Part shown: positions 2 through 12,944 of the stretch, piece after piece
How the letters are laid out: every line of letters starts with the position of its first letter
Numbering within the stretch: position 1 is the first letter of the stretch
Assembly (NCBI GenBank): GCA_014360645.1
Contig: JACIXD010000016.1
Coordinates: 12,395 to 76,394 of the forward strand
From: Actinomycetota bacterium
GTDB taxonomy: Bacteria; Actinomycetota; Geothermincolia; Geothermincolales; RBG-13-55-18
DNA: 64,000 nt
Direction of reading: 5' to 3'
Notes under the pieces: model-generated
Seen by the model: only the letters and a program-made list of their open reading frames with translations
What the model was told of the DNA's origin: nothing
Databases searched by the model: none
Position numbers and translations under genes: made by a program

Positions 2-1021
2 TGCCGCCAGCTCGCCGGGCTGGGGCCCAGGCTGCTCCTCATGCTGGACAACGACGAGACGGCGCTGTTCGAGATGGAGCACGAACTGGCGCGCCTGCAG
101 AGCCCCTGTCCCTTCCACGCCGTGGTGGCGGACGTGCGCGACTTCGACCGCCTGCTCTCGGTGTTCCGGCGCTACCGCCCCCAGGTGGTCTTCCACAGCG
201 CGGCCTTAAAACATGTGCCCATGATGGAGTTCCACCCCTCGGAGGCGGTGAAGAACAACGTGCTGGGCACGCGCAACCTGGCGGAGGCCTCCATCTATTT
301 CGGGGTGGAGCGGTTCATACTCATTTCCACCGACAAGGCGGTGCACCCGGTGAACGTAATGGGGGCCACCAAGCGGGTGGCGGAGATGCTCATAAAAAGC
401 TACTCGGGCATCATCCACACCCTCTTCGCCGCGGTGCGCTTCGGCAACGTGCTGGGCTCGCGGGGGAGCGTGGTGCCCACCTTCATGCGCCAGATCGAGA
501 AGGGGGGCCCGGTGCTGGTCACCCACCCCGAGGTCACCCGCTACTTCATGACCGTGGAGGAGGCGGCGCAGTTGGTCATCCAGGCGGGGGCTTTCACCAA
601 GGGGGGCGACACCTTCATCCTGGACATGGGGGAGCCGGTGCGCATCATCGACCTGGCGCGGGAGCTCCTGCGCCTCATGGGCAAGGAGAAAGAGGTGGAG
701 ATAAAGGTCACCGGGCTGCGGCCGGGGGAGAAGCTGCACGAGGAGCTCGCCTTCCCCGTGGAGGAGCTCATGCGCACCCCCCATCCCAAGATAGACAAGG
801 TATGGCACGAGAAGGAGCTGCGCACCGACTTCGTGCAGCTCCTGGACCGCCTCATCGGGGCGGCCGCCTGCGACGATGAGGACAAGGTGCGGGAGCTGCT
901 CTCGGCGCTGGTCCCCTCGTACAAGCCCTCCGTCCCCGTGTCGGCGTCGCCGCGCGGCGGCCTGCGGGTGCTGCATACCGAGGCTGCGGCCGGGCAGGCG
1001 GTGGAGGCGAGCGAAGCGTAA
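2..1021 (+). CDS. Polysaccharide biosynthesis protein, CapD/WbpM-like nucleotide-sugar 4,6-dehydratase (C-terminal part; 5' end lies outside the window)
   Basis: Frame 2 is open from the window edge. The translation (…ISTDKAVHPVNVMGATKRVAEML…VRFGNVLGSRGSVVP…) matches the CapD/PglF family extended-SDR core. Confidence 0.75.
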   Translation, partial: CRQLAGLGPRLLLMLDNDETALFEMEHELARLQSPCPFHAVVADVRDFDRLLSVFRRYRPQVVFHSAALKHVPMMEFHPSEAVKNNVLGTRNLAEASIYFGVERFILISTDKAVHPVNVMGATKRVAEMLIKSYSGIIHTLFAAVRFGNVLGSRGSVVPTFMRQIEKGGPVLVTHPEVTRYFMTVEEAAQLVIQAGAFTKGGDTFILDMGEPVRIIDLARELLRLMGKEKEVEIKVTGLRPGEKLHEELAFPVEELMRTPHPKIDKVWHEKELRTDFVQLLDRLIGAAACDDEDKVRELLSALVPSYKPSVPVSASPRGGLRVLHTEAAAGQAVEASEA

Positions 1022-1023
1022 GC

Positions 1024-1052
1024 GGGGTCGTATCTTCAATCTTCGATGCCGG
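1024..1052 (+). repeat. REP1 copy (GGGGTCGTATCTTCAATCTTCGATGCCGG)
   Basis: First of more than 30 copies of a ~28-bp GC-rich repeat family seen on both strands in intergenic DNA. A degenerate second copy lies at 1090-1117. Confidence 0.7.
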
Positions 1053-1272
1053 TGACTTACGTGGCCACGTGCTGCCCAGCCGCCCGGGAGGTCCTCGATC
1101 TTCGATCAGGGTGACCCACAGGGGCAACCCCGAAGCTGCCGATCAGCCAACCCCCATGGCCTGGGCGGGGCCCCCATTGCGGCAGAACCCATTGCACCGT
1201 CGCTGCACGACAAAGGGAGAAACCATGTCGCTTCGAATAATTATCATGGGGAAAGGCAAAGGAGGTGGAAGA

Positions 1273-2697
1273 ATGGCGAAGGTTATCGGCCTGTCAGGTC
1301 CCTTCGGGGCTGGCTGCTCCACCGTAGCGGGGATATTAAAAGACGAGGGTTACCAGGTCATCAAGGCAAGCGCCTTCATCACGGAATGGGCCGAGCGGAA
1401 CGACGTTGGATTCGCGGTTCCAGAGGGGGACAGCACGGAAAGGAGGCATGCCCTACAGGTTGCCGGCAATATCCTCAGGATGCATGAAGGCAGTGATGCG
1501 ATCGCCAGGCTTGCGCTGGACTACATCAGAGAGCAAGAGGGGAGGAGCGAGCATCCCGAGAGCTTACGGTTCGTCATCGACAGCCTGAAAAACAGGGCGG
1601 AGACAGACTTTCTGCACGAACAACTGGGCGATCGCTTTACGGCGGTTTCCGTCTATTCGTCCGTCCAGAGCAGGGAGAAGAGGAGCTGCGTTGAAAACAG
1701 CTACAGCGGCAACCTGTGGCTGATGAAAAGAGATGACCGGAGAGACAGGGACGAATTCGGCTCCGACGTGGAATGGGGCCAGCAGGTCCTGCAGTGCGAC
1801 GTAGCCGCGGATATCTCCATCGATAACGATGAAAACGTCGAGACCAAAGAGGCGTGGGATTACAAGCTGGCCAACGCCGTTTCGCAATATGTCCTGAACG
1901 AGCATCCAGAGATCGATGCGAACACCCTTTTCATGTGGCGGGCGGAGCTGGAGGCGGCGAATTCCAGGTGCGGCAAGAGAAAGGTCGGAGCCTGCCTTGC
2001 AAAAGAAGAGGAGATAATCTCGGTAGGGTGGAACCGTGCTCCCGATGGCGTGGATGGATGTCTCGAGCACAAGGACTACAGGACCTGCTATCGCGACCAC
2101 CTTCGGTCGCAGAAGGAAAGAGATGATGCGGGCAGGGAGATAGACTGGGGCGATCTAGAGCTGGATGAATACGAGCGTGCGCTGATAAATGAGATCGATG
2201 ACGATGCGGAGAAGCGGAGGTATATCAGCCGCGTTGTCCTGGATGCCATCGACGGGTACTATTATGACTTCAAGACGTTGGAGGCGTGCAGGGCCCTACA
2301 TGCGGAGGAAGCAGCGATTCTTGCCGCTCTGGAGAGGGGAGCGGATATAAGGGAGGCCACCCTGTACACGACTACCTATCCTTGCATGGCCTGCGCCAAG
2401 AAGATCGCGCAACAGGGGATAAAGGAGGTCTATTTCATCGAGCCCTATCCCATCGAGGGGGCGAGGAAGCTTCTGGACGAAAAGGGCGTGAGGCAATACC
2501 GGTATCAGGGCTTGAGGTTGCGGTTTGCGCCACGCATACTTGATGACATGAGCGAAAGCACTAGGGGCAGGCTGGGAAGAATGAGCGGGAAGGATCTCGA
2601 GCCGGGGGAGGTGTATGACAGTGCATTTCAGATGTTCGCGCTGCAAAAAACAGTCAATGCAATACTCGGGCGGTGCGGGGAAGCTGATCTGCTATAA
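1273..2697 (+). CDS. AvcD-like P-loop-kinase / dCMP-deaminase fusion (putative anti-phage deoxycytidylate deaminase)
   Basis: The N-terminus MAKVIGLSGPFGAGCST resembles a CoaE/CMP-kinase P-loop, but the Walker-A Lys is replaced by Cys. The C-terminus has the dCMP-deaminase zinc motifs KRKVGACL…SVGWNRAPDG…C.E and HAEEAAILAA…PCMACAKKIAQQGIKEVYF. RBS GGAGGTGGAAGA precedes the ATG at 1273. An alternative start at 1225 (MSLRIII…) also has an RBS. Confidence 0.6.
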   Translation: MAKVIGLSGPFGAGCSTVAGILKDEGYQVIKASAFITEWAERNDVGFAVPEGDSTERRHALQVAGNILRMHEGSDAIARLALDYIREQEGRSEHPESLRFVIDSLKNRAETDFLHEQLGDRFTAVSVYSSVQSREKRSCVENSYSGNLWLMKRDDRRDRDEFGSDVEWGQQVLQCDVAADISIDNDENVETKEAWDYKLANAVSQYVLNEHPEIDANTLFMWRAELEAANSRCGKRKVGACLAKEEEIISVGWNRAPDGVDGCLEHKDYRTCYRDHLRSQKERDDAGREIDWGDLELDEYERALINEIDDDAEKRRYISRVVLDAIDGYYYDFKTLEACRALHAEEAAILAALERGADIREATLYTTTYPCMACAKKIAQQGIKEVYFIEPYPIEGARKLLDEKGVRQYRYQGLRLRFAPRILDDMSESTRGRLGRMSGKDLEPGEVYDSAFQMFALQKTVNAILGRCGEADLL

Positions 2698-2842
2698 CTG
2701 CGGGCTGGCCATAAGATGCAGCAATGCGGACAAGCTGTGGGATATATTGGGAAGCGATGACTTCGCCTTCATGGAGAGCTGGGAAAAGGACCTGATCCTG
2801 AGCGTGCACCAGGTCAATCACGGCACGAGCATGGCGGGATAG
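2615..2842 (+). CDS. Small Zn-ribbon protein (CxxC…CxxC) overlapping the 3' end of the deaminase gene
   Basis: RBS GGGGGAGGTG lies 4 nt before the ATG. The translation is MTVHFRCSRCKKQ…ICYNCGLAIRC. It overlaps the upstream gene by 83 nt in another frame. Confidence 0.4.
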   Translation: MTVHFRCSRCKKQSMQYSGGAGKLICYNCGLAIRCSNADKLWDILGSDDFAFMESWEKDLILSVHQVNHGTSMAG

Positions 2843-2882
2843 GCGCGCGGGGTGGCGGAACCCGTCCCCGTGGGGTCAGATC

Positions 2883-2911
2883 TTCGATCTTCAATGCCTG
2901 GAAAACGGGTG
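2883..2911 (+). repeat. REP1 copy
   Basis: GGGGTCAGATCTTCGATCTTCAATGCCTGG. Confidence 0.7.
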
Positions 2912-3033
2912 GGGATGGGAGCATGATTTCTGAATTCGGATTTCGTTAAGCGAGCCCCCGCCCCAGTGATTCCTTATCCTCTCTGAACTCATGGGCTTGA
3001 TAGGTTGACTGTATTTATCATTCAGGCGTCGTT

Positions 3034-3099
3034 GGGGTCATATCTTCATTCTTCGATCCCAGCCGTGGGTGGGGTCATATCTTCATTCTTCGATCCCGG
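3034..3099 (+). repeat. Two tandem REP1 copies
   Basis: GGGGTCATATCTTCATTCTTCGATCCC appears twice. Confidence 0.7.
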
Positions 3100-3215
3100 T
3101 AGTATTGGCCAAAGCGACTACATAAATCTCGAGTCATCGCCGAACTCCGGAAGCCCCTCTATTGGCCGCATCACATCAACACTTGTTGAATTCCGAAGAG
3201 CCCTGTATTGCCCGC

Positions 3216-3265
3216 AGCGAAGATCGAAGATACGACCCCATTAAGAAGATCGAAGATACGACCCC
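3216..3265 (-). repeat. Two tandem REP1 copies (reverse orientation)
   Basis: GAAGATCGAAGATACGACCCC appears twice. Confidence 0.7.
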
Positions 3266-3379
3266 ATTAACTATTGCATAACTTATCTATTTGTAATAAC
3301 ATAACGATATTATGCTGACGGTCGGAGAGTGGCGTAAGCGGTGGAGGAGCTATACAGCATCCATGCGAAACCGAACCCG

Positions 3380-3466
3380 GGGGTCACATCTTCGATCTTC
3401 GACTCCGGTAACTTATGGCCTGGTCAAGTTAAGTAAACTTGCATCGAAGATCGAAGATACGACCCC
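3380..3466. repeat. REPIN (inverted REP1 pair) immediately upstream of the RAYT gene
   Basis: REP1 (+) lies at 3380-3408 and REP1 (-) at 3442-3466, separated by a ~33-bp spacer. Confidence 0.65.
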
Positions 3467-3495
3467 ATCATTCCGCGGAGGTCAGTGCGAAAGCC

Positions 3496-4452
3496 ATGGC
3501 AAGACAGCTCAGAATCGAGTTCCCGGGCGCCCTATATCATGTCTTCTCCAGGGGCGTCGCCAAGCAGCCCATCTTCGAGTCGGATGAGGACCGCGCCAGG
3601 TTCCTGGACATCCTGGGCAAGGTGGTGGAGCGGCATAACTGGATAATCCACGCCTACTGCCTTATGGGGAACCACTACCACTTGCTGGTGGAGACGCCGG
3701 ATCCCAACCTCTCCCGGGGCATGCAGCTGCTGAACGGCGTCTACGCCCAGCGTCACAACGCCGAGCACGGACGGGTTGGCCATCTCTTCCAGGGGAGGTA
3801 CGGCAATACCCTCGTCGACAAGGAAGAGTACTTCCTCGTCGCGGCGTGCTACATCGTGCTCAACCCGGTGAGGGGAGGACTGGTGGAACACCCTTCCGCC
3901 TATCGCTGGAGCAGCTATAGAGCCACAGCTGGGGCTGAGAAGGCGCCGTCTTTCCTCCACATCAGCAGCATCCTGCTCTGCTTCGCGCCCGACCTGCACA
4001 TGGCGCAGAGGCTTTACCGTGAGTTCGTCGACGGAGGCATAGACGAGGAGACAGCACGGCGACTAGAGTCGGGCGGGGTCTGCGGCGGGGAGGTATTCCA
4101 GGCCTGGGTGGGCGAGATAGTCGAGGGGAGGAAACGGATACGGGAGATACCCCGCAGGCAGAGATACGTGGGGAGGCCGTCCCTGGCGCGTATACTCGAT
4201 GGGTGGGCGGACCAGCGGGAGAGGGACGAGAACATAGCGCGGGCGGTGCAGGACTTCGGGTACACCCAGAAGGAGGTCGCCGACCACCTAGGCCTTGCCC
4301 CCTCCACCGTGAGCGTCATCATGAAGAGGGTCGGGCAGGGATCGAGTGGTGCCCCGGGCGGGGTCAGATCTTCATCGGGCGGGGTCAGATCTTCATTCTT
4401 CGATCCCGGCAGTATTGAGCAGAGCGGGCAGAGCGATCTCGAATCCTATTGA
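3496..4452 (+). CDS. REP-associated tyrosine transposase (RAYT; IS200/IS605-like Y1 HUH transposase, TnpA_REP) with a C-terminal HTH
   Basis: The translation MARQLRIEFPGALYHVFSRG…MGNHYHLLVETP carries the HuH motif, and the catalytic Tyr region RWSSY follows. The C-terminus has an HTH (DFGYTQKEVADHLGLAPSTVSVIMKRV). The gene is flanked on both sides by REP1/REPIN copies. The last ~35 codons read through REP sequence. Confidence 0.75.
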   Translation: MARQLRIEFPGALYHVFSRGVAKQPIFESDEDRARFLDILGKVVERHNWIIHAYCLMGNHYHLLVETPDPNLSRGMQLLNGVYAQRHNAEHGRVGHLFQGRYGNTLVDKEEYFLVAACYIVLNPVRGGLVEHPSAYRWSSYRATAGAEKAPSFLHISSILLCFAPDLHMAQRLYREFVDGGIDEETARRLESGGVCGGEVFQAWVGEIVEGRKRIREIPRRQRYVGRPSLARILDGWADQRERDENIARAVQDFGYTQKEVADHLGLAPSTVSVIMKRVGQGSSGAPGGVRSSSGGVRSSFFDPGSIEQSGQSDLESY

Positions 4453-4479
4453 ATTCCGAAGCATCGGGCGGGGTCAGAT

Positions 4480-4696
4480 CTTCATTCTTCGATCCCGGCA
4501 GTATAGTCAGAGCGAGCACGTCGATTTCTAGCCATCTTTGCCCGCATCGAAGATCGAAGATGTGACCCCAGATTTCCTCATCGGGCGGGGTCAGATCTTC
4601 ATTCTTCGATCCCGGCAGTATAGTCAGAGCGAGCACGTCGATTTCTAGCCATCTTTGCCCGCATCGAAGATCGAAGATGTGACCCCAGATTGTTAA
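4480..4696. repeat. Two tandem copies (period 117 bp) of a REPIN: REP1(+) – 46-bp spacer – REP1(-)
   Basis: REP1(+) copies lie at 4480-4508 and 4597-4625; REP1(-) copies at 4555-4579 and 4672-4696. The two ~100-bp units are near-identical. A further REP1 and a half copy lie at 4370-4419. Confidence 0.75.
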
Positions 4697-5007
4697 TATG
4701 AATTCGGGAAGGCCTGTGCGATCAATGCAAGGGGATGATGGAAGCTGGATCGTGAAGCGAATGGCAAGGTCAACTTCCCGCCTCGCTGCCGGCTGATGCG
4801 CGAGCCCGCGGAAGCGGAGGAAGGCGGCTGGCGGGAAGCGGTGGTCTCTGCGGGTGATCACCTCAAGCGCGTCCTCGACGAGTACGTGGAGCTCGGCTTC
4901 GAGTGCCTGCTGGAGGAACTGGACGCCGAGGCCACCCCCGGATGCTCCGAGTGCTTCAAGTCCGGGGGAGAACGCGTCTACCGCGTCTATGTGCGGAGAA
5001 AGGGCGA

Positions 5008-5063
5008 AGGGGGTCGTATCTTCGATCTTCAATCGTAGGGGGGTCGTATCTTCAATCTTCAAT
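5008..5063 (+). repeat. Two tandem REP1 copies
   Basis: GGGGGTCGTATCTTCGATCTTCAATCG appears twice. Confidence 0.65.
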
Positions 5064-5172
5064 CCATCGAAGATGGTTGTGTCTTCAATCCAGGTAAGTG
5101 AGCATGCGCGGCAACATTGGTTGGGGAGCAAACATGGCGCTTCCGGGTTCTGCGGACCTCGCTGAGCCAAGC

Positions 5173-5244
5173 CATTCACATTGAAGAATGAAGATACGAC
5201 CCCAAAAGGAAGCTATTCACATTGAAGAATGAAGATACGACCCC
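5173..5244 (-). repeat. Two tandem REP1 copies (reverse) within a 40-bp tandem unit
   Basis: TTCACATTGAAGAATGAAGATACGACCCCAAAAG appears twice. Confidence 0.65.
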
Positions 5245-5415
5245 AAAAGTCGCGTGCCCGCTTGGGAACGCGGGGTCCTCCTCGCCGGGACGGGACCGCC
5301 CGGGAGCGGTCCCAGGGGTCGTATATTTAGCTCAGCCCTTTCCGTCCGGACCCCGGGAGCGCCGATAATGGTATTCCAATATATGGAAAGTAATTCAAGA
5401 TGCAAGACCTGACCC

Positions 5416-6207
5416 CTACATGAAGGCGCTGTAGACCATGGCGGCAATCCCCCCCAGGGCGAGGATGGCGGCGAAGGCGTATTGCAGGGCGGAGGAGCGC
5501 CTGATCTTCCGGGACAGCTCGGCCTCCATCTTGTGGCTGATGATGAAGGGGCTGTCCCCTTTGCCCACCGCCGCGACCTCGCCCGAGCGCTGGGCGGTCC
5601 CCAGGACGTAGACGGGCTGGCCGACGCGGATGAGCGATTCGGTTATCCTGTATCCCAGCACATCCTCGTAGTCGTCGTCCAGGGCGCTGAGGACGCTCTC
5701 CAGGATCGCTCCTCCCACTCCGGAGGATTCCAGGTAGTCGCGCCCGCGCCCGCGCCCCTCGTGGGTCCGGGTCTCGGCGATGTAGTCGGCGCCATCCGGG
5801 TAGACCAGGCACCGGCCGCTGGAATCGCTCACGTAGAAGGGGATCTCCTCCTTGCGGTCGTCGACGGTGTCCCAGAATTCGCTGGTCTTCATGGTGCCCG
5901 TCCGCTCGTCCCTCTCCCGGCGCTGCTTGCGGTGCTCCAGCTTGTAGCGGTAGTAGACGCAGGGGATCTGCGAGGTGGGGGAGAGCAGGGGCTCGTCCGC
6001 CTCCACCACCCCCACGAGCTCCACCCCGGCTCCGGGTGCGGAGAGCGCCATCTTGGACGCGTCGGCGGCGTTCACCGTGGGGGTCGCCTCCATGACCTCC
6101 AGCTTCTTCCTGCCGCGGTAGCCCAGGAAGGCGAGGACGACCCCGATGACGAGGGCGGCTCCGCCGATGCCCAGCACCACCCACTGTGAATTATCCACGG
6201 TCGCCAC
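5416..6207 (-). CDS. Membrane protein with N- and C-terminal TM helices (possibly GIDE-domain-like)
   Basis: Clean 263-aa ORF with hydrophobic termini (VVLGIGGAALVIGVVLAF… and …AFAAILALGGIAAMVYSAF). An SD overlaps the GTG start; an alternative GTG start lies 9 nt downstream. Confidence 0.5.
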   Translation of the reverse strand: MATVDNSQWVVLGIGGAALVIGVVLAFLGYRGRKKLEVMEATPTVNAADASKMALSAPGAGVELVGVVEADEPLLSPTSQIPCVYYRYKLEHRKQRRERDERTGTMKTSEFWDTVDDRKEEIPFYVSDSSGRCLVYPDGADYIAETRTHEGRGRGRDYLESSGVGGAILESVLSALDDDYEDVLGYRITESLIRVGQPVYVLGTAQRSGEVAAVGKGDSPFIISHKMEAELSRKIRRSSALQYAFAAILALGGIAAMVYSAFM

Positions 6208-6395
6208 CTCCTGCTCCGGCGTCGCCGGACGTCCGCATCGTCAAACAACCCGGCCCGGGGAGCTGCCGGGTCGGCCGGGGCGAATCGTGTCGGCGGAGCG
6301 AGGCCGGCCCTCATCTCCCTGGCCGTAGACCCTTCACTTCATGGCGTCGGATACGGCACCGGTCCTTTCGCGATGCGAACAGCCGCTTGCCAGAT

Positions 6396-8051
6396 TCAGG
6401 CTTCGCCCTTGGCTTCCTTCTGCCTGGCGATCTCCTCCTCGCGCAGGGCGCGGCGCAGGATCTTGCCCACCATGGTCTTGGGCAGCTCAGGCCGGAACTC
6501 CACCATGCGCGGCGCCTTGTAGGGGGCTAGGCGCTCGCGGCAGAAGGAGATGATCTCCTCTTCCGTGCACTCCTCGCCAGGCTTTAGCACGATGTACACC
6601 TTCACCGTCTCGCCGCGGTACTCGTCCGGGATGCCCACCGTCACCGCCTCTTGCACTTTGGGGTGTTCGTAGAGGACCTCGTCCACCTCGCGGGGATATA
6701 TATTAAACCCGCCGGCGATGATCATATCCTTCTTGCGGTCCACGATATAGAAATAGCCGTCCTCGTCCATGGTGGCGATGTCCCCGGTATACAGCCAGCC
6801 GTCCCGCAGGGTCTCCGCCGTCTCCTCCGGCTTCTCCCAATAGCCCTTCATCACCTGGGGTCCGCGGATGATCAGCTCGCCGGGCTCGTTTGGGCCCAGC
6901 TCCTGCTTCCCCGTCTCCACGTCGACGATCTTCGCCTCGGTATCCGGGAAGGGGATGCCGATGGAGCCCACCTTGCGCATGCCCATGATGGGGTTGGAGT
7001 GGGTCACCGGCGAGGCCTCTGAGAGCCCGTAACCCTCGCAGAAGATACCCCCGGAGATGCGGCTGAACTGCTTGATCACCTCCACGGGGATGGGGGCGGA
7101 CCCGGAGTTGCACAGCCTCAGCTTGTCCACGCCGTAGTTGAGCGCCTCGGGGTGGCTGAGGATGGCCACGTAGAGGGTGGGGACCCCGGGGAAGAAATTG
7201 GGGCGGTACTTCTGGATGGCCTGCAGCATCATGTTGATCTCGAACTGCGGGATGAGGACCATGGTCGCGGCGTTGGCGATGGCAGTGTTCATGCCCACCG
7301 TCTGTCCGTAGGAGTGGAAGAAGGGGATGACGTCCAGGTAGATGTCCTTGCCGCGCTCGGTGAACTCCTTCGCCCACATGGAGCACTGCATGGCGTTGGC
7401 CAGCAGGTTGCGGTGGGTGAGCATGACCCCCTTTGGCAGTCCGGTGGTGCCCCCGGTGTACTGCAGGGCCGCGAGGTCGTTCTCGGGGTCGATCTCCACC
7501 TCGGACACCTCCGGCTCGGCGTCGGCGATGACCTCCTTGAGGTAGTAGGTGGAGGAGTCTTTCTCTACGTTGGGGTTGACCGGCGTCTCCATGTAGTCGG
7601 TGATACTGGAGGCAATGATCCGCTTGAGGGGGGAGTTCCCCTTCACCGCCTGGATGCGCGCGTCGAAGAGGTCGAGGTAGATGAGGGTCTCCGATCCCGA
7701 GTCGTTGAACTCGTATTCCAGCTCCCGCTCAACGTGCAGGGGGCTGATGTTGACCACCGTCGCCCCCGCTTCCAGCACGCCGTAATAGGAGATGATGAAC
7801 TGGGGGCTGTTGGGGAGCATGATGGCCACGCGGTCGCCCTTCTGGACCCCCATCCCCCGCAGGGCGGTGGCAAAGCGGCGGACCTGGTCCCGGATCTGCC
7901 CGTAGGTGAGCTGCTGGTCGAAGAAGATAGTGGCCACGTGCTCGTCATACTTCACGCAGGTGAGTTCCAGTAACTGGTAGAGAGGTATGTTTGGGTAACG
8001 TATGGTCTCGGGGACGAAATAGTCGTAGTTCTTGAGCCAGACCTTTTCCAT
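6396..8051 (-). CDS. Long-chain-fatty-acid–CoA ligase (AMP-binding family)
   Basis: AMP-binding motifs YTGGTTGLPKGV and TGD…GGFNIYPRE…GK are present. RBS GAAGGAGGGGG precedes the ATG. Confidence 0.85.
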   Translation of the reverse strand: MEKVWLKNYDYFVPETIRYPNIPLYQLLELTCVKYDEHVATIFFDQQLTYGQIRDQVRRFATALRGMGVQKGDRVAIMLPNSPQFIISYYGVLEAGATVVNISPLHVERELEYEFNDSGSETLIYLDLFDARIQAVKGNSPLKRIIASSITDYMETPVNPNVEKDSSTYYLKEVIADAEPEVSEVEIDPENDLAALQYTGGTTGLPKGVMLTHRNLLANAMQCSMWAKEFTERGKDIYLDVIPFFHSYGQTVGMNTAIANAATMVLIPQFEINMMLQAIQKYRPNFFPGVPTLYVAILSHPEALNYGVDKLRLCNSGSAPIPVEVIKQFSRISGGIFCEGYGLSEASPVTHSNPIMGMRKVGSIGIPFPDTEAKIVDVETGKQELGPNEPGELIIRGPQVMKGYWEKPEETAETLRDGWLYTGDIATMDEDGYFYIVDRKKDMIIAGGFNIYPREVDEVLYEHPKVQEAVTVGIPDEYRGETVKVYIVLKPGEECTEEEIISFCRERLAPYKAPRMVEFRPELPKTMVGKILRRALREEEIARQKEAKGEA

Positions 8052-8334
8052 ACAGGACCCCCTCCTTCTTGCGAGCGGGCGGACGCCCGCGCTCTACGGA
8101 CCATCCTGGTTCCCTCTCCGCTGCGCGGCGAGCGGAAGTCAGGCGAGCGCACGGCGCGGAAGAGTGCGCTGGCGCTGCCTTTCCGGGCTCATTTCCCCGT
8201 TCCTTTCTAGCCCCGCGCCGGGATGCGAGCATCTCCGGGGATGCGGGGCGCTGCTCTATCGCGAAACCTGACAGCCGACTTGTTAACCATTTTGCATTCG
8301 ACGACCAACCAAGTCAACCACCATGGGGTCGTGT

Positions 8335-8446
8335 CTTCAATCTTCGATTCACTAACACCATGGGGTCGTTCAATGAACTGGGGGTCAGATCTTCAATCTT
8401 CGATTCAATAAGGGGAACTGGAGGTCGGAACTGGGGGTCGGAACTA
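8335..8446 (+). repeat. REP1 copies and fragments plus GGGGGTCGGAACT x2 mini-repeats
   Basis: REP1 copies at 8335-8360 and 8381-8407, with partial copies between them. Confidence 0.6.
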
Positions 8447-8593
8447 GGGGTCAGATCTTCAATCTTCGATTCAATAGCGATTGGTGGTGTTAGTGGCGGG
8501 GTTTTCATTCAGAATATGCCTATGGCAGGTTCCACTAGCTGACCCCACAAGCGGTTGAGACCTGCCGGCATCGAAGATCGAAGATGTGACCCC
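8447..8593 (+). mobile_element. MITE-like element (~147 bp) bounded by inverted REP1 sequences; left copy
   Basis: REP1(+) at 8447-8473, a 96-bp spacer, then REP1(-) at 8570-8593. It is about 95% identical to the reverse complement of 11026-11172. Confidence 0.7.
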
Positions 8594-9038
8594 ATTATCT
8601 GTACCGAGCCCCGGCTACCTCTCCGACCTCATAGGCGAGTGGGAGCGCGAGCACGGGGCGGTGCTGCCGCGCCGGGGCACCGTGCACGACCTCGGGCCCT
8701 CGCTTACCCACAAGGCGGCCATCTGCCGCAAGGCCGTGCTGGAGGGCAAGCAGACCCCGGAGATCGCCCGGGAGACCCACCACAGCCCGGCCAGCGTGGA
8801 CCGCTACCTGCTGGACCTGGAGCGGGTGGCCTACGCCATGCTCAAGCACGGCATGAGCCTGGGCGAGATATGCTTCACCACCCAGATGTCCGAGGGTCTG
8901 GTCCGCCAGTATGCCCAGCTCGTTACCGAACTCGGGCTCTCGGAATCAAGCCCTTACCGAAAGGAGGTGGGCGCCAAACTTCCCATTGATTCAAGGTCCG
9001 CAACGACCAATGCCCAGCGGACCCAGCATACCCGATAG
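8586..9038 (+). CDS. Hypothetical DNA-binding protein with two HTH-like motifs (possibly a truncated IS-associated gene)
   Basis: The ORF begins inside the MITE-like element, so the true start is uncertain. The motifs QTPEIARETHHSPASVDRYL and MSLGEICFTTQMSEGLVRQY resemble resolvase/IS-OrfA-type HTHs. Confidence 0.35.
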   Translation: MTPLSVPSPGYLSDLIGEWEREHGAVLPRRGTVHDLGPSLTHKAAICRKAVLEGKQTPEIARETHHSPASVDRYLLDLERVAYAMLKHGMSLGEICFTTQMSEGLVRQYAQLVTELGLSESSPYRKEVGAKLPIDSRSATTNAQRTQHTR

Positions 9039-9091
9039 GATGGATGTCATATGACACAGCTATAGATACGACCCCAACGCTGACCTGCCGG

Positions 9092-9115
9092 CATCGAAGA
9101 TCGAAGATGTGACCC
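9092..9115 (-). repeat. REP1 half-site with flanking sequence matching the right arm of the MITE-like element
   Basis: CTGACCTGCCGGCATCGAAGATCGAAGATGTGACCC. Confidence 0.6.
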
Positions 9116-9123
9116 AATACAAA

Positions 9124-9156
9124 ATTGAATTATAATTGAATTATAATTGAATTATA
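9124..9156 (+). promoter_or_regulatory. AT-rich 11-bp direct repeats (TTGAATTATAA x3) upstream of the ligase gene
   Basis: Island of under 15% GC in a 65% GC genome, about 80 bp upstream of the 9233 start. Likely a promoter or binding site. Confidence 0.4.
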
Positions 9157-9232
9157 ATAATATAATGGTCGCGGATGCGATAGTTATCAGCGGGCTGCAG
9201 GATCGGGCTTGAGTTCGAGGGAGGGACATTCC

Positions 9233-11020
9233 ATGACCGATTTCCGGCATTTCTACGATGACATACTCGCGTCTTTCGCCAGGTACCCCGCTATCATCCA
9301 TGGAGATGAGGTCATCACCTACAGGGAGCTGGATGAGCGCACCAACCGCCTCGCCCACGCCATGCTGGAACTGGGGATTAAACGCGACCACAACGTGGGC
9401 ATAGCGGAATATAACACCCCCGCGTTCCTGGAGGTGGTGGCTGCCGCCTTCAAGGTGACCGCGCGTGCCGTGACCCTGAACTTCAAGTTCAAGGAATGGG
9501 AACTCAAGCATGTCATAGAGGACGCAGGCATGGAGACGGTGTTCTTCAACGAGGACATAGCCGACCGCATGGTGAACCTGCGCCCTGAGCTGCCGGGGGT
9601 GAAGAACTACGTCATCATCGGCGAGCGCCGTGTCGAGGGCATGCTCAACTATTCCGAGATCGTACGGGGTAGGCCGTCCACTGCCCCCACCCCGCCATGG
9701 CCAGAGTTCAGCGGCGACGACGTGGTGGTGCTCATGTACACCGGGGGCACAACCGGGTATCCGAAAGGAGTGATCTACACCCATGACCAGGTGTTAAGCG
9801 CGCCACTCGAGGCGATGATCCGCAATTTCGCGGGCGGACTGAGAGACCTCTCCAAGGCACCACCCCAGGTCTTCAAGGGCATCGAGAAGACCCTGAGAAT
9901 CCCCGGCGCCGCGCGCACCCTCCCTTGGCTGCTCTCGCGTGAGGCCACCCGCAGGGCGCTGATAGTCGTGGGCAAGAAGGCAGGCCCCTTCATCATCAAG
10001 GCCCCGGACCCCCTGATCAGGGCGATACTCTTCCTCAACGCCAGGCTCACGGGAGGGAAGGTGAGGATGCTGTTGGCCAGCCCCATGATGCACGCCTGGG
10101 CCTACAACCACGCCCTCATCGGCATGATCGGAGGTTTCACCAGCATCCTCCTGCCCTCCAAGAGCTTCGAGGTCTCGGAGATGATCTCGGCCATAGAGAA
10201 GCACCGCGCCAACGTGCTGGTGGCGGTGGGCGACGGGCAGTGCCGGCCCTTTGCCGATGAGCTCGACCGCGCCGCCGCCGAGGGGAAGCGTTACGACCTG
10301 GGTTCTCTCCTGGTTGTGCTCTCCAGCGGCATGGCACTCTCCGTAGACGTGAAGCGAAGGCTGCTCGAGCACCTCCCACAGCTCATCATCCTGGACGTGC
10401 TGGCCTCAACGGAGGGGCATTACATCTCCGTCACTCCCTACACCGCCGCGGACCGTGAGCTGGAGAAGACCGTCTTCAGGGTGAGCGACATGGTCAAGGT
10501 CATAACCGAGGATGGGAGGGAGGCCCGGCCGGGCGAGATCGGGGAGGTGGCGGTAGCCCGCGAGCACCAGGGCTCCTCGGGATATTACGGCGACGCCGAG
10601 AAGACGGCGCGCACCTACCGCAAGGTGGGCGGCAAGACCTACATCTTCACCGGCGACATGGCCTCAGTGGACGAGAAAGGACACATACACCTCATAGGCA
10701 GGGGATCCGGCTGTATCAACACTGGGGGCGAGAAGGTGTTCCCTGAGGAGGTGGAGGAGGTGCTCAACCGCCACCCCGCGGTGGAGCTCTCGGGTGTCAC
10801 CAGCGTTCCCCATCCCCGCTGGGGAGAGGCGGTCACGGCGGTGATACAGTTAAAGCCGGGGGAACAGGCCGACGAGGAGGAGATAAAGGCGTGGTGCAAA
10901 GAGTATCTGGCTGATTACAAGGCCCCCAAATACGTGCTCTTCGTGGACGAGCTGCCGCGCCTGATCACCGGCAAGGTACATTACCGCGAGATCAAGCAGT
11001 TGGTACAGGAGAAATTCTAG
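9233..11020 (+). CDS. AMP-dependent synthetase/ligase (acyl-CoA synthetase family)
   Basis: Motifs YTGGTTGYPKGV and TGD…GSGCINTGGEKV…GK are present. RBS GGAGGGA lies 6 nt before the ATG at 9233. An alternative ATG lies at 9209. Confidence 0.8.
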   Translation: MTDFRHFYDDILASFARYPAIIHGDEVITYRELDERTNRLAHAMLELGIKRDHNVGIAEYNTPAFLEVVAAAFKVTARAVTLNFKFKEWELKHVIEDAGMETVFFNEDIADRMVNLRPELPGVKNYVIIGERRVEGMLNYSEIVRGRPSTAPTPPWPEFSGDDVVVLMYTGGTTGYPKGVIYTHDQVLSAPLEAMIRNFAGGLRDLSKAPPQVFKGIEKTLRIPGAARTLPWLLSREATRRALIVVGKKAGPFIIKAPDPLIRAILFLNARLTGGKVRMLLASPMMHAWAYNHALIGMIGGFTSILLPSKSFEVSEMISAIEKHRANVLVAVGDGQCRPFADELDRAAAEGKRYDLGSLLVVLSSGMALSVDVKRRLLEHLPQLIILDVLASTEGHYISVTPYTAADRELEKTVFRVSDMVKVITEDGREARPGEIGEVAVAREHQGSSGYYGDAEKTARTYRKVGGKTYIFTGDMASVDEKGHIHLIGRGSGCINTGGEKVFPEEVEEVLNRHPAVELSGVTSVPHPRWGEAVTAVIQLKPGEQADEEEIKAWCKEYLADYKAPKYVLFVDELPRLITGKVHYREIKQLVQEKF

Positions 11021-11025
11021 GCGTT

Positions 11026-11172
11026 GGGGTCACATCTTCGATCTTCGATGCCGGCAGGTCTCAACCGCTTGTGGGGTCAGCTAGTGGATCCTGCCATGGG
11101 CATATTCTAAATGAAAACCCCGCCACTAACACCAACAAACGCTATCGAATCGAAGATTGAAGATCTGACCCC
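11026..11172 (-). mobile_element. MITE-like element, inverted copy of 8447-8593
   Basis: Its reverse complement aligns over ~147 bp to the left copy. Together they bracket the 2.4-kb segment 8594-11025. Confidence 0.7.
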
Positions 11173-11175
11173 CAA

Positions 11176-11427
11176 TTAGGGATTGAGGGGGCGGCGCCCG
11201 GCCGTGACCCGGATGGCGTTCTGGGCGCAGGCGGACAGACACTCCCCGCAGCCGTCGCAGAACGACACGAAGCGGGGGACGATGCGGTATCGGGGGTTCT
11301 CCCCGTGCCGGTCGTGGTCTTTTTCCCTGGGTACGGCGAGGAAGACACCGTGCGGGCAAGCCTCCTGGCAGCGGCGGCCACAGGCCTCGGCATCGCAGTC
11401 GGCGACCCTGACGCGGTAACGGGGCAT
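11176..11427 (-). CDS. Ferredoxin, 2x[4Fe-4S]
   Basis: The translation MPRYRVRVADCDAEACGRRCQEACP…CDGCGECLSACAQNAI shows two cluster motifs. RBS GGAGGTGG precedes the ATG. There is a 2-nt gap to the upstream gene. Confidence 0.7.
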   Translation of the reverse strand: MPRYRVRVADCDAEACGRRCQEACPHGVFLAVPREKDHDRHGENPRYRIVPRFVSFCDGCGECLSACAQNAIRVTAGRRPLNP

Positions 11428-11429
11428 CG

Positions 11430-12245
11430 TTACCACCTCCCCGCCGCCGCAGGAACGGTCTCTCGTCCCGCCAGGGACAGGGCTCCGCGCGGGCAGACGC
11501 CGCGGCACAGGCCGCATCCGAAGCAGTCCCCCGCGTGCACGTGCACCCGTCCAGCCTCGGGATCGTAGTGCAGGGCTCCGAAGGCACAGCGGGAGACGCA
11601 GACGGGTTCCTCGCAATAGCGGCATAGCAAGCGATCCACCACGCAGACCTCGTGGCCCTTGTAGATAGCCGCCTCTACGTTATTGGCCCAGCGCTGCTTG
11701 AGCGAGGTGCAGTAGCGCGCGTCGCAGTTGCAGATGCAGATGGGGAAGGGGACCTTGGCGTAAAGCACCTGGTGGAAATGGCCACGCTCCTCGCTGCGCC
11801 GTACCACTTCCTTGGCCTCTTCCAGGGTGATCTCCTCCATGGGTCCCTGGGGCATGTGGCGCCTCTGCAGTTCCTTCACCGGACCGAAGTTGAGACATAC
11901 CATGTCGTCCCGGTTCCCCACCAACTTGCGGCAGGCGCAGGGCAGGAGCACGAAATCCCGGGCGTATTCCAGCAGCGCGAGGGAATCCTCGAGGGAGACC
12001 ACCTGCCCGCCGTGCTCGTTGGGGGCCATGCGGTTGATGGCCGCCTTCACCGCCTTGCCGATCACCGGCAGGTTGACCAGCCGGGTCATGCGGGAGGTGA
12101 AGTCGATGTAGTAATCGATCCCCCAGCCCGCCACCTTCTCCAGGGTCTTCACGCGCTGGGGATCCTCCATCATCTTCTCGGAGAAGTTCTCGGGATTGAG
12201 GTACCAGCGGTTGCCCTGGCCGTGTTTCTCGCAGAACTCGCACAT
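11430..12245 (-). CDS. Fe-S cluster protein with a C-terminal 4Fe-4S dicluster domain
   Basis: N-terminus MCEFCEKHGQGNRWY…; C-terminus CVSRCAFGAL…CFGCGLCRGVCP. RBS GGAGGCG is present. Confidence 0.55.
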   Translation of the reverse strand: MCEFCEKHGQGNRWYLNPENFSEKMMEDPQRVKTLEKVAGWGIDYYIDFTSRMTRLVNLPVIGKAVKAAINRMAPNEHGGQVVSLEDSLALLEYARDFVLLPCACRKLVGNRDDMVCLNFGPVKELQRRHMPQGPMEEITLEEAKEVVRRSEERGHFHQVLYAKVPFPICICNCDARYCTSLKQRWANNVEAAIYKGHEVCVVDRLLCRYCEEPVCVSRCAFGALHYDPEAGRVHVHAGDCFGCGLCRGVCPRGALSLAGRETVPAAAGRW

Positions 12246-12313
12246 GAAGACGCCTCCAACACCGAAGATGCCCGCCGGGAGCTTTTATATTTTAACACAA
12301 CGGATCGCGTAAC

Positions 12314-12493
12314 GGGGTCAGATCTTCGATCTACGATACCAATATATGGGTAATATTCGTGATTTAAACGGCCAACGGCTACCTGATCGCATTGAAAAAG
12401 TAAGGGGTCAGATCTTCGATCTACGATACCAATATATGGGTAATATTCGTGATTTAAACGGCCAACGCTACCTGATCACATGATCACATTGAA
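12314..12493 (+). repeat. Two tandem copies of a 90-bp unit (REP1 plus an AT-rich segment CCAATATATGGGTAATATTCGTGATTTAAACGG)
   Basis: REP1 copies at 12314-12340 and 12404-12430. The units are near-identical. Confidence 0.7.
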
Positions 12494-12744
12494 AGAGAGG
12501 ATCGGGATCTCATTGAAAACGAAGATCCAAAATAATGCCTATGGCACTTTATCTATAATAACGAGGTCAAATTCTCGACGACGGCGACTTATGCTTTAGC
12601 AACTGAGCTGTGGGTACCCGTCTTATCCCCAACCCCGAGCGCAGCGCCTGTGCCTTGTAAGTAAAGCAAAATTGATGCCAGACCCCCGTTTGGCGTTGGC
12701 GCTGGCCGCGTCGATGTTCGGAGAGAACTCGATTGGCAGACAAT

Positions 12745-12944
12745 GCATCGATGATCGAAGATCGAAGATCTGACCCCATCGGGGAATGCATCGATGATCG
12801 AAGATTGAAGATCTGACCCCATCGATCATCTGACCCCATCGGGGAATGCATCGATGATCGAAGATCGAAGATCTGACCCCATCGAGGCCCCATCGAGGCC
12901 CATCGAGGCGCGTCAATGTGTCGAAGATCGAAGATCTGACCCCA
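12745..12944 (-). repeat. Array of four REP1 copies (reverse) within ~50-bp tandem units
   Basis: ATCGATGATCGAAGATCGAAGATCTGACCCCATCG is repeated. The last copy forms the 3' end of the downstream dehydrogenase ORF. Confidence 0.7.

Follow-up and report, generated by a model that had tools for sequence, protein, structure and literature searches.

The stretch analyzed here (64,000 nucleotides [nt] of contig JACIXD010000016.1 from an Actinomycetota bacterium, in full referred to as the window) carries, at positions 1273 to 2842 of its forward strand, two overlapping genes. The longer encodes a fusion of a kinase-like domain with a deoxycytidine monophosphate (dCMP) deaminase domain, which places it with the DCD/AvcD superfamily; the shorter encodes a small zinc (Zn)-ribbon protein. 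The part of this locus that appears to be undescribed is the conserved Zn-ribbon partner; the kind of deaminase, the cysteine-containing nucleotide-binding loop (P-loop), and the insertion that caps the active site are all known. Four contigs with close relatives of the window deaminase, referred to as L001 to L004, were used for comparison. The features of the two genes are as follows.

1273 to 2697, forward strand: gene for the kinase-like/dCMP-deaminase fusion of the DCD/AvcD superfamily; 474 amino acids (aa), from ATG 1273 to the stop at 2697.
1288 to 1323, forward strand: P-loop GLSGPFGAGCST, with Cys15 at the position of the Walker-A lysine.
2044 to 2286, forward strand: enlarged active-site cap insertion of the deaminase, predicted to be helical and skipped by alignments with the T4 and S-TIM5 dCMP deaminases.
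2299 to 2394, forward strand: catalytic Zn site, from HAE (residues 343-345) through PCxxC (residues 370-374); H343, A344, E345, P370, C371, and C374 are invariant.
2518 to 2694, forward strand: C-terminal helical tail of the deaminase (residues 416-474); clade-specific, with only P0001-P0005 having one in the alignment.
2607 to 2611, forward strand: ribosome-binding site (RBS) GGAGG of the Zn-ribbon gene, within the deaminase coding sequence; invariant in the window, L001, L002, and L003.
2615 to 2842, forward strand: Zn-ribbon partner gene, whose product has 75 aa if translation begins at ATG 2615 and 73 aa if it begins at GTG 2621.

The original prediction, made from the bare sequence, had described a 75-aa CxxC...CxxC open reading frame (ORF) with its own RBS over the 3' end of the deaminase gene, and this description holds. 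The two CxxC motifs lie at residues 7-10 and 26-29 (2633-2644 and 2690-2701), the ORF shares its first 83 nt with the 3' end of the deaminase gene, and GGAGG is placed 3 nt ahead of ATG 2615 and 9 nt ahead of GTG 2621. As GTG 2621 is invariant across the window and its relatives and ATG 2615 is lost in L001, the true start is probably GTG 2621 (73 aa) rather than ATG 2615. Retention of the overlapping ORF in homologues had been proposed as a check, and L001 to L004 all retain it, with deaminases 79, 77, 57, and 44% identical to that of the window, overlaps of 62, 62, 68, and 29 nt, and partner proteins 82, 81, 56, and 28% identical, respectively. Past the overlap, substitutions are biased to the third positions of the Zn-ribbon frame (12/22, 13/24, 16/24, and 35/69 in four pairwise comparisons), and the same bias is also seen within the overlap, where nucleotide identity between the window clade and L003 is 79-80%; in the single-coding flanks it is 36-50%. 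In these alignments, the pattern in the overlap is what double coding would be expected to leave when the small ORF imposes the stronger constraint, and the Zn-ribbon ORF is, on this comparative evidence, a real gene under purifying selection. The AlphaFold2 (AF2) model of its product reaches a predicted local distance difference test score (pLDDT) of 70-82 over residues 1-40, with three short strands as in a ribbon, and falls below 50 in the C-terminal part; the C-terminal half of the protein may be disordered, the one sign that the protein could be less stable than the deaminase. No DNA-binding domain was detectable in the 75-aa protein. We also considered a programmed +1 frameshift at the A6 run at 2645-2650 that would fuse both ORFs, and rejected it because the run is not conserved in L001-L003 and the first CxxC would be lost in the fusion.

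The partner is a feature of a large clade, of which the window locus is an ordinary member. A family scan that took one genome per species yielded 80 loci, and the partner was tallied over 83 loci with an identifiable deaminase ORF; at 48 of these 83, a Zn-ribbon ORF starts within a few nt of the deaminase stop, often with a 4-nt overlap (ATGA). Loci with this partner, which has the consensus M..CPxCG....Y(D/N)xYFG.Y.C..C.W, occur in Bacillota, Planctomycetota, Actinomycetota, Chloroflexota, Desulfobacterota, WOR-3, and Bathyarchaeia, and the window protein is joined to the wider partner family by hhalign with 92% probability (E 6.6e-7). In a neighbor-joining tree, the partner-bearing deaminases form one large clade, which includes that of the window, and a few scattered branches. 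A profile search of 5.8 billion proteins recovered 81 relatives of the partner, none with a name or a Pfam domain, and reverse look-up of two of these placed each directly after a 386-aa kinase-deaminase, in differing genomic contexts. The small gene is adjacent to the effector gene, co-oriented with it, translationally coupled to it, and conserved with it, which is the arrangement of a type II-like toxin-antitoxin (TA) pair. Searches of Pfam, PADLOC, NCBIfam, and PHROGs for a named family gave only sub-threshold matches to generic zinc ribbons, and literature searches found no paper on a Zn-ribbon partner of such a deaminase. No Zn-ribbon ORF is present beside the deaminases of Escherichia coli AW1.7, enterotoxigenic E. 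coli (ETEC) p58, a second E. coli plasmid, a Vibrio plasmid, or Burkholderia phage phiE094. The suggestion that such a partner does not belong to described AvcD proteins hence stands for the characterized loci; what does not stand is that it would set the window locus apart, given its occurrence at 48 of 83 loci.

Partners differ in form among clades. In Planctomycetota, they reach about 190 aa (L020, at 4188-4772, as well as L027, L030, L049, L052, L053, L058, and L061) and combine the Zn ribbon with a conserved extra domain of about 130 aa; this domain matches DUF2283 below threshold in 5 of 8 of these proteins, with a best E of 0.0068. The transcriptional activator FseA contains DUF2283, to which the anti-activator QseM bears a weak resemblance (PMC4755241). 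Many Firmicutes partners have basic tails. A subclade from Planctomycetota and Patescibacteria (L071, L073, L078, L080, and L084) has another small ORF, 10-80 nt past the deaminase stop, which encodes about 55-65 aa, is Lys/Arg-rich and cysteine-free, and has the conserved end ...Y(S)xGPGDNI(Y/F)V(F/Y)G; this ORF may be a second kind of partner.

With regard to the deaminase itself, the proposed AvcD/DCD-type order of a kinase-like domain followed by a deaminase domain was borne out. The protein carries GLSGPFGAGCST at residues 6-17, KVGACL at 237-242, GWNRAP at 252-257, HAEEAA at 343-348, and PCMACAKK at 370-377, and its ATG 1273 is preceded by the Shine-Dalgarno sequence AAAGGAGG at a distance of 7 nt; longer forms starting at ATG 1225 or ATG 1246 were discarded in favor of ATG 1273, as in-frame conservation is absent in the relatives. 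Pfam dCMP_cyt_deam_1 matches with E 1.3e-18 and the Pfam P-loop models match weakly (AAA_18, 0.024; CoaE, 0.033), while the PADLOC dCTPase model matches residues 4-413 with E 2.4e-78. An AF2 model built with 120 homologues shows two domains (pLDDT 88.2; predicted template modeling score 0.86). Foldseek matched its C-terminal half to the dCMP deaminases of Streptococcus mutans, T4, and human and to the PBCV-1 dCMP/deoxycytidine triphosphate (dCTP) deaminase, and its N-terminal half to the adenylate-kinase-related structure 3lw7 (template modeling score 0.82) and dephospho-CoA kinase. The domain matches and the fold matches together indicate that the kinase-like/deaminase fusion is real. Tal et al. 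(10.1101/2021.04.26.441389) define the family by a single polypeptide of >350 aa in which a kinase-like domain at the N-terminus precedes a C-terminal deaminase domain of the cytidine/dCMP type, and the 474-aa window protein has both this size and these two domains. NCBIfam NF041025, the anti-phage dCTP deaminase equivalog, aligns end to end and scores 212 bits against a cut-off of 400. By these sequence matches the window deaminase is a member of the DCD/AvcD superfamily that lies outside the curated NF041025 equivalog. A protein identical to it is on record from an NCBI metagenome-assembled "Actinobacteria bacterium" genome, and its nearest non-identical relative (79%) is that of Candidatus Solincola daggyaiensis (L001). 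We found no solved AvcD or DCD structure; searches with the window protein and ETEC AvcD sequences gave isolated dCMP-deaminase domains only.

Within the kinase-like domain, D103, R134, and R137 are invariant in the alignment, and we read them as Walker-B and lid positions; R58, Q62, R69, E110, and D158 are further conserved polar residues. Conservation of these polar residues would fit a nucleotide-binding site that is still functional. At the other end of the protein, helices are predicted at residues 416-438 and 444-464 of the tail, with falling pLDDT, and the last 27 codons overlap the Zn-ribbon gene.

The cysteine that replaces the Walker-A lysine had been thought foreign to described AvcD proteins, a claim that has to be given up. 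The motif G[PS]FG[SA]GC[ST] recurs in no fewer than 111 of the 120 best homologues, and G14 and C15 are invariant in the family alignment. In the E. coli AW1.7 dCTP deaminase, defense is abolished by G29A and by C30A (10.1101/2021.04.26.441389); the sequence given for this enzyme in Table S5 of Tal et al. translates to ...LVGLTGRTGSGCTT, the AW1.7 chromosome carries the same gene, annotated "anti-phage dCTP deaminase", and BLASTP pairs the AW1.7 loop with VIGLSGPFGAGCST of the window protein, so that G14-C15 lie opposite G29-C30. Other degenerate loops are found in proteobacterial AvcD proteins (GFAGCGMKT in ETEC p58 and GAVGTELTA in a Vibrio plasmid), and the Walker-A mutant of Vibrio cholerae AvcD is S52K (10.1101/2021.03.31.437871; PMC10511110); absence of the Walker-A lysine is therefore normal in the superfamily. 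The cysteine P-loop is characteristic of the family and not new, and experiments in AW1.7 have already put it to the test.

A long insertion does separate the two halves of the deaminase domain, as had been proposed, and both its size and its supposed novelty need correction. There are 85 residues between P257 and H343, and the excess over minimal dCMP deaminases amounts to about 65-75 aa instead of the proposed 90 or so. An insert at the same place measures about 82 aa in E. coli AW1.7, and about 55-57 aa lie between the same motifs in Firmicutes relatives. In dCMP deaminases, an insertion is known to cap the active site, supported by a second zinc site (PMC3239186), and C233, C263, C272, and C339, which are invariant in the alignment, fit such a structural Zn site of the cap. 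The insertion in the window protein is thus a long version of the known dCMP-deaminase cap and no new kind of feature.

The cap is also where a zinc ribbon recurs at loci that have no partner gene. Among the partner-less loci, 21 by a strict pattern and about 6 more by eye have a CxxC...CxxC ribbon inside the cap insertion (L018, L019, L024, L028, L029, L037, L038, L041, L050, L051, L054/L063, L055, L062, L067, L075, L077, and L081 are loci with such a ribbon), and only 5 of the 48 partner-bearing loci have one as well (Fisher p = 2e-6, not corrected for phylogeny). This distribution suggests, as far as sequence patterns can tell, that separate and built-in ribbons are largely complementary and that zinc-ribbon modules act at the cap.

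Upstream of the deaminase, the region at 1022-1272 had been described as non-coding and as containing repetitive extragenic palindromic (REP) sequence. Both points are correct; the accompanying idea that it holds an RNA like AvcI, the small RNA of the Vibrio AvcID system, found no support. The region has no conserved ORF and comprises the following elements.

1024 to 1049, forward strand: REP copy GGGGTCGTATCTTCAATCTTCGATGC before the module; exact 21-nt pattern match (1024-1044); repeat families D1 and D4.
About 1092 to 1126, forward strand: second, degenerate REP-like copy within the spacer, assigned to repeat family D2 and sharing 71% identity with 1033-1067.
1213 to 1272, forward strand: conserved leader or promoter-proximal segment; no other upstream part could be aligned with L001 and L002, and its alignment with L003 is partial.

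The 60-nt leader holds AAGGGAGAAACC..., the perfect palindrome ATAATTAT, which could be a -10 region or an operator, and the Shine-Dalgarno sequence given above. A scan of the upstream region with the sigma-70 consensus found no promoter, and no terminator was found there. An Rfam search of the region gave no match, its folding is no better than that of shuffled sequence on either strand (z = -0.10 and +0.83), and no alignment was obtained among the regions upstream of related Firmicutes deaminases. Missing conservation is not decisive here, as known AvcI RNAs, which lie immediately 5' of avcD and are co-transcribed with it, are not conserved in sequence between homologues (10.1101/2021.03.31.437871; PMC10511110). 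In L001, the spacer before the deaminase (2823-3000) has three tandem copies, of about 40 nt each, of a different repeat (CAGACATGGGGGTCAGGCCTCGGTTCATGTC...), which shares a GGGGTCA start with the window REP.

The wider setting agrees with the accessory REP-rich stretch, with its REP-associated tyrosine transposase (RAYT), that the original prediction had outlined. The REP motif GGGGTCRNATCTTCRWTCTTC has 30 copies, on both strands, all within 1024-12943 of the window, where 0 are expected by chance; its unit appears to consist of GGGGTC and, behind it, an ATCTTCR heptad in tandem, and does not resemble a palindrome, and inverted pairs occur. The guanine-plus-cytosine (GC) content of the operon is 0.56-0.57, below the 0.65-0.69 of the flanking genes. 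Features on this stretch outside the two genes are the following.

2872 to 2897, forward strand: REP copy after the module, oriented like that at 1024.
3439 to 4452, forward strand: RAYT-type Y1 transposase gene with a C-terminal helix-turn-helix (HTH); Pfam Y1_Tnp E 1.1e-10, HTH_23 E 4.3e-5.
5416 to 6207, reverse strand: gene for a 263-aa GIDE-domain protein (E 8.9e-20), between REP clusters.
8586 to 9038, forward strand: 150-aa ORF that matches the C-terminal half of DUF1670 (E 2.3e-26), with an HTH-like region, between REP copies; possibly a truncated gene.

REP copies surround the RAYT gene at 3380 (forward), 3446 (reverse), 4381 (forward), and 4549 (reverse), and just past it lies a perfect 113-nt direct duplication (4462-4574 and 4579-4691; 100% identity, 117-nt period), each copy of which contains one forward and one reverse REP. 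The GIDE domain takes its name from a mitochondrial E3 ubiquitin ligase of eukaryotes. Neighboring genes in the window encode a polysaccharide-synthesis protein, the GIDE-domain protein, two acyl-CoA synthetases, a ferredoxin-like protein, and a 3-hydroxyacyl-CoA dehydrogenase. Genes of the Polysacc_synt_2/epimerase type lie within a few kb of the operon both in the window (41-1021) and in the unrelated Firmicutes locus L089 (10636-12189), which may be coincidence or may reflect a preference for variable surface-polysaccharide regions. Among the relatives, L001 has a MazE/PIN pair directly upstream and another locus has an integrase fragment. Taken as a whole, the window locus looks like an isolated acquired insertion and not like part of a defense island. 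The temperate Burkholderia phage phiE094 (Peduoviridae; L095, 687-4036) carries a full-length AvcD-type kinase-deaminase that adjoins two AAA-family ATPase genes, downstream of an integrase gene, in what looks like a prophage defense hotspot. A phage origin was considered and rejected, as a full-length homologue was found in this one temperate phage only, and this AvcD-type homologue lacks a Zn ribbon.

We consider that 1273-2842 is, with somewhat better than even probability, a two-gene nucleotide-depletion operon of the DCD/AvcD superfamily in which a Zn-ribbon subunit gates the deaminase; we infer the enzyme activity, the defense role, the formation of a complex, and the inhibitory direction of the partner. 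In such an operon, the first gene would supply a kinase-like nucleotide-binding domain with a G-x-x-G-x-G-C-[ST] loop joined to a Zn-dependent dCMP/dCTP deaminase with an enlarged cap, and the second, translated from the RBS inside the end of the first, would supply a Zn-ribbon protein of about 73-75 aa with a poorly ordered C-terminal half. The two proteins would form a complex and, in the uninfected cell, the Zn-ribbon subunit would silence the deaminase; the probable place for this is the cap that covers the active site, or its vicinity. Shutoff of host gene expression by a phage, or some other removal or occupation of the small subunit, would then free the deaminase to convert dCTP and dCMP to deoxyuridine triphosphate and monophosphate (dUTP and dUMP) and so starve phage DNA synthesis. 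The Zn-ribbon protein would thus take the role that the AvcI RNA has in Vibrio AvcID, a system from which the logic of losing a labile inhibitor upon host shutoff is borrowed. In favor of the proposal are the family matches and the conserved functional residues of the deaminase, the tight linkage of a real partner gene across phyla, the precedent set by the decay of AvcI upon transcription shutoff and by the T7 mutants that escape DCD, and a mobile setting, to which the low GC content, the REP and RAYT elements, the MazE/PIN pair of L001, and the phiE094 homologue all point.

Several findings weigh against this proposal. The window deaminase is only 23-28% identical to the tested proteins of the family and falls short of the NF041025 cut-off, as reported above. 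An effector gene placed first and its small partner second is the less common gene order in TA systems. The main argument against a simple degradable antitoxin is that a ribbon built into the cap cannot be degraded separately, which speaks for a role in structure or sensing. At every locus with inspected gene calls, the deaminase is preceded by a gap of 230-460 nt (252 nt in the window), in which an upstream RNA regulator would have room. PADLOC gave no match for seven window neighbors, and the locus does not look like a defense island; among 116 neighbor ORFs of related loci, a handful matched (AbiEii, a type IIG restriction enzyme, MADS components, and a SAVED effector), but as no background was computed, these matches are uninformative either way on defense islands.

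The gating proposal has to be weighed against three other explanations, the most serious of which, although we judge it unlikely, keeps the same operon and enzyme and makes the Zn-ribbon protein a sensor, an activator, or an obligatory structural subunit instead of an inhibitor. The cap-internal Zn ribbons of sister clades, together with the five loci that have both kinds of ribbon, are easier to understand if the ribbon is a lasting part of the enzyme than if it is an antitoxin that can be degraded; the basic tails of many Firmicutes partners would likewise suit a sensor or activator, and the extra domain of the Planctomycetota partners, with its sub-threshold DUF2283 matches, suggests an output or input domain. 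However, the characterized relatives are constitutively toxic unless inhibited, which makes an inhibitor the simpler need, the tight translational coupling would give roughly equal synthesis of both proteins, as in TA pairs, and homology of the internal ribbons to the partner is only assumed. An AvcI-like small RNA encoded at 1022-1272, with the Zn-ribbon protein as an accessory, appears the least probable of the three. Its appeal lies in the position of AvcI immediately 5' of a co-transcribed avcD, in the gap that precedes the deaminase at the inspected loci, and in the divergence of known AvcI sequences. Yet conservation among close relatives is confined to the 60 nt next to the start, the remaining spacer is REP sequence, the Rfam, folding, and Firmicutes alignment results described above speak against an RNA, and the element that is conserved across phyla is the protein partner.

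A housekeeping role is also improbable, if marginally less so than an RNA regulator. Here, the enzyme would deaminate dCMP or dCTP to provide dUMP for thymidylate synthesis, its nucleotide-binding domain would be regulatory, and the Zn-ribbon protein would be a small zinc-binding subunit. The window neighbors are metabolic and none is PADLOC-positive, the neighbors of related loci seldom match defense models, one relative lies just past the rpsL-rpsG-fusA-tuf genes, and the NCBIfam equivalog cut-off is not reached, all of which would agree with such a role. On the other hand, genomic contexts vary among close relatives, the module has low GC content and is flanked by REP/RAYT elements, relatives have MazE/PIN and integrase-fragment neighbors, the defense-derived PADLOC dCTPase model matches strongly, and the P-loop motif is that required for defense by E. 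coli AW1.7. The original prediction had named, as outcomes that would speak for housekeeping, best matches to ComEB-type deaminases with no conservation of the N-terminal domain, or homologues that lack the small ORF and lie in nucleotide-metabolism operons; instead, residues of the N-terminal domain are conserved, the relatives keep the small ORF, and no inspected neighborhood is a nucleotide-metabolism operon.

The gating proposal may also extend beyond this locus. We tentatively suggest, while thinking it rather more likely to be wrong than right, that the dCTP-deaminase family has interchangeable regulators, which differ by clade: an upstream RNA in proteobacterial AvcID, a coupled Zn-ribbon protein in Bacillota, Planctomycetota, Actinomycetota, Chloroflexota, and some archaea, or a ribbon built into the cap. 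Annotation tools now treat dCTP-deaminase defense either as a single gene or as an RNA-controlled toxin-antitoxin pair, and annotation pipelines should look for a second, Zn-ribbon gene as well. If the Zn-ribbon protein is a labile inhibitor or an infection sensor, the two genes would represent an undescribed two-component form of nucleotide-depletion immunity, and if gating by the Zn ribbon is true, the cap would be marked as the site where the enzyme is gated. A small protein partner that is found across phyla offers a concrete and testable handle on how these deaminases are regulated.

Among known systems, the DCD of E. coli AW1.7/U09 resembles the window protein in its domain order (kinase-like domain at the N-terminus, zinc deaminase at the C-terminus), in its detection by the PADLOC dCTPase model, in its nucleotide-binding loop (LVGLTGRTGSGCTT in AW1.7 versus VIGLSGPFGAGCST in the window), and in its long insertion before HAE. 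It differs in being only 28% identical over the alignable part and in its 576 aa, with about 140 extra residues within the kinase-like domain; it also has no downstream Zn-ribbon gene, and the clade-specific C-terminal tail is that of the window protein. T7 mutants that escape DCD map to modifiers of the host RNA polymerase (10.1101/2021.04.26.441389). V. cholerae AvcID, tested homologues of which include ETEC p58, shares with the window a two-domain toxin (P-loop-kinase-like and deoxycytidylate deaminase) and an adjoining gene for a small regulator, the regulatory role of the window partner being proposed by analogy. In AvcID, however, the regulator is a non-coding RNA 5' of the deaminase, which inhibits AvcD and decays when transcription is shut off (10.1101/2021.03.31.437871; PMC10511110), whereas in the window it is a translationally coupled protein gene on the 3' side; the ETEC and Vibrio AvcD proteins are 23-25% identical to the window protein and have the different P-loops GFAGCGMKT and GAVGTELTA. 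The housekeeping and phage dCMP deaminases (ComEB, T4 Cd [1vq2], S. mutans [2hvw], and PBCV-1 bi-DCD [7fh4]) have the same catalytic fold with HAE and PCxxC as the window protein, but have no kinase-like domain, a much shorter cap, and no described partner gene. Finally, type II TA pairs in which the toxin gene comes first and the antitoxin binds zinc include MqsR/MqsA. Profile-library scans found no sequence similarity of the window partner to pairs of this type; what these pairs do share with the window is the arrangement, i.e., a gene for a small zinc-binding protein right after the effector gene, with reading frames that overlap or abut.

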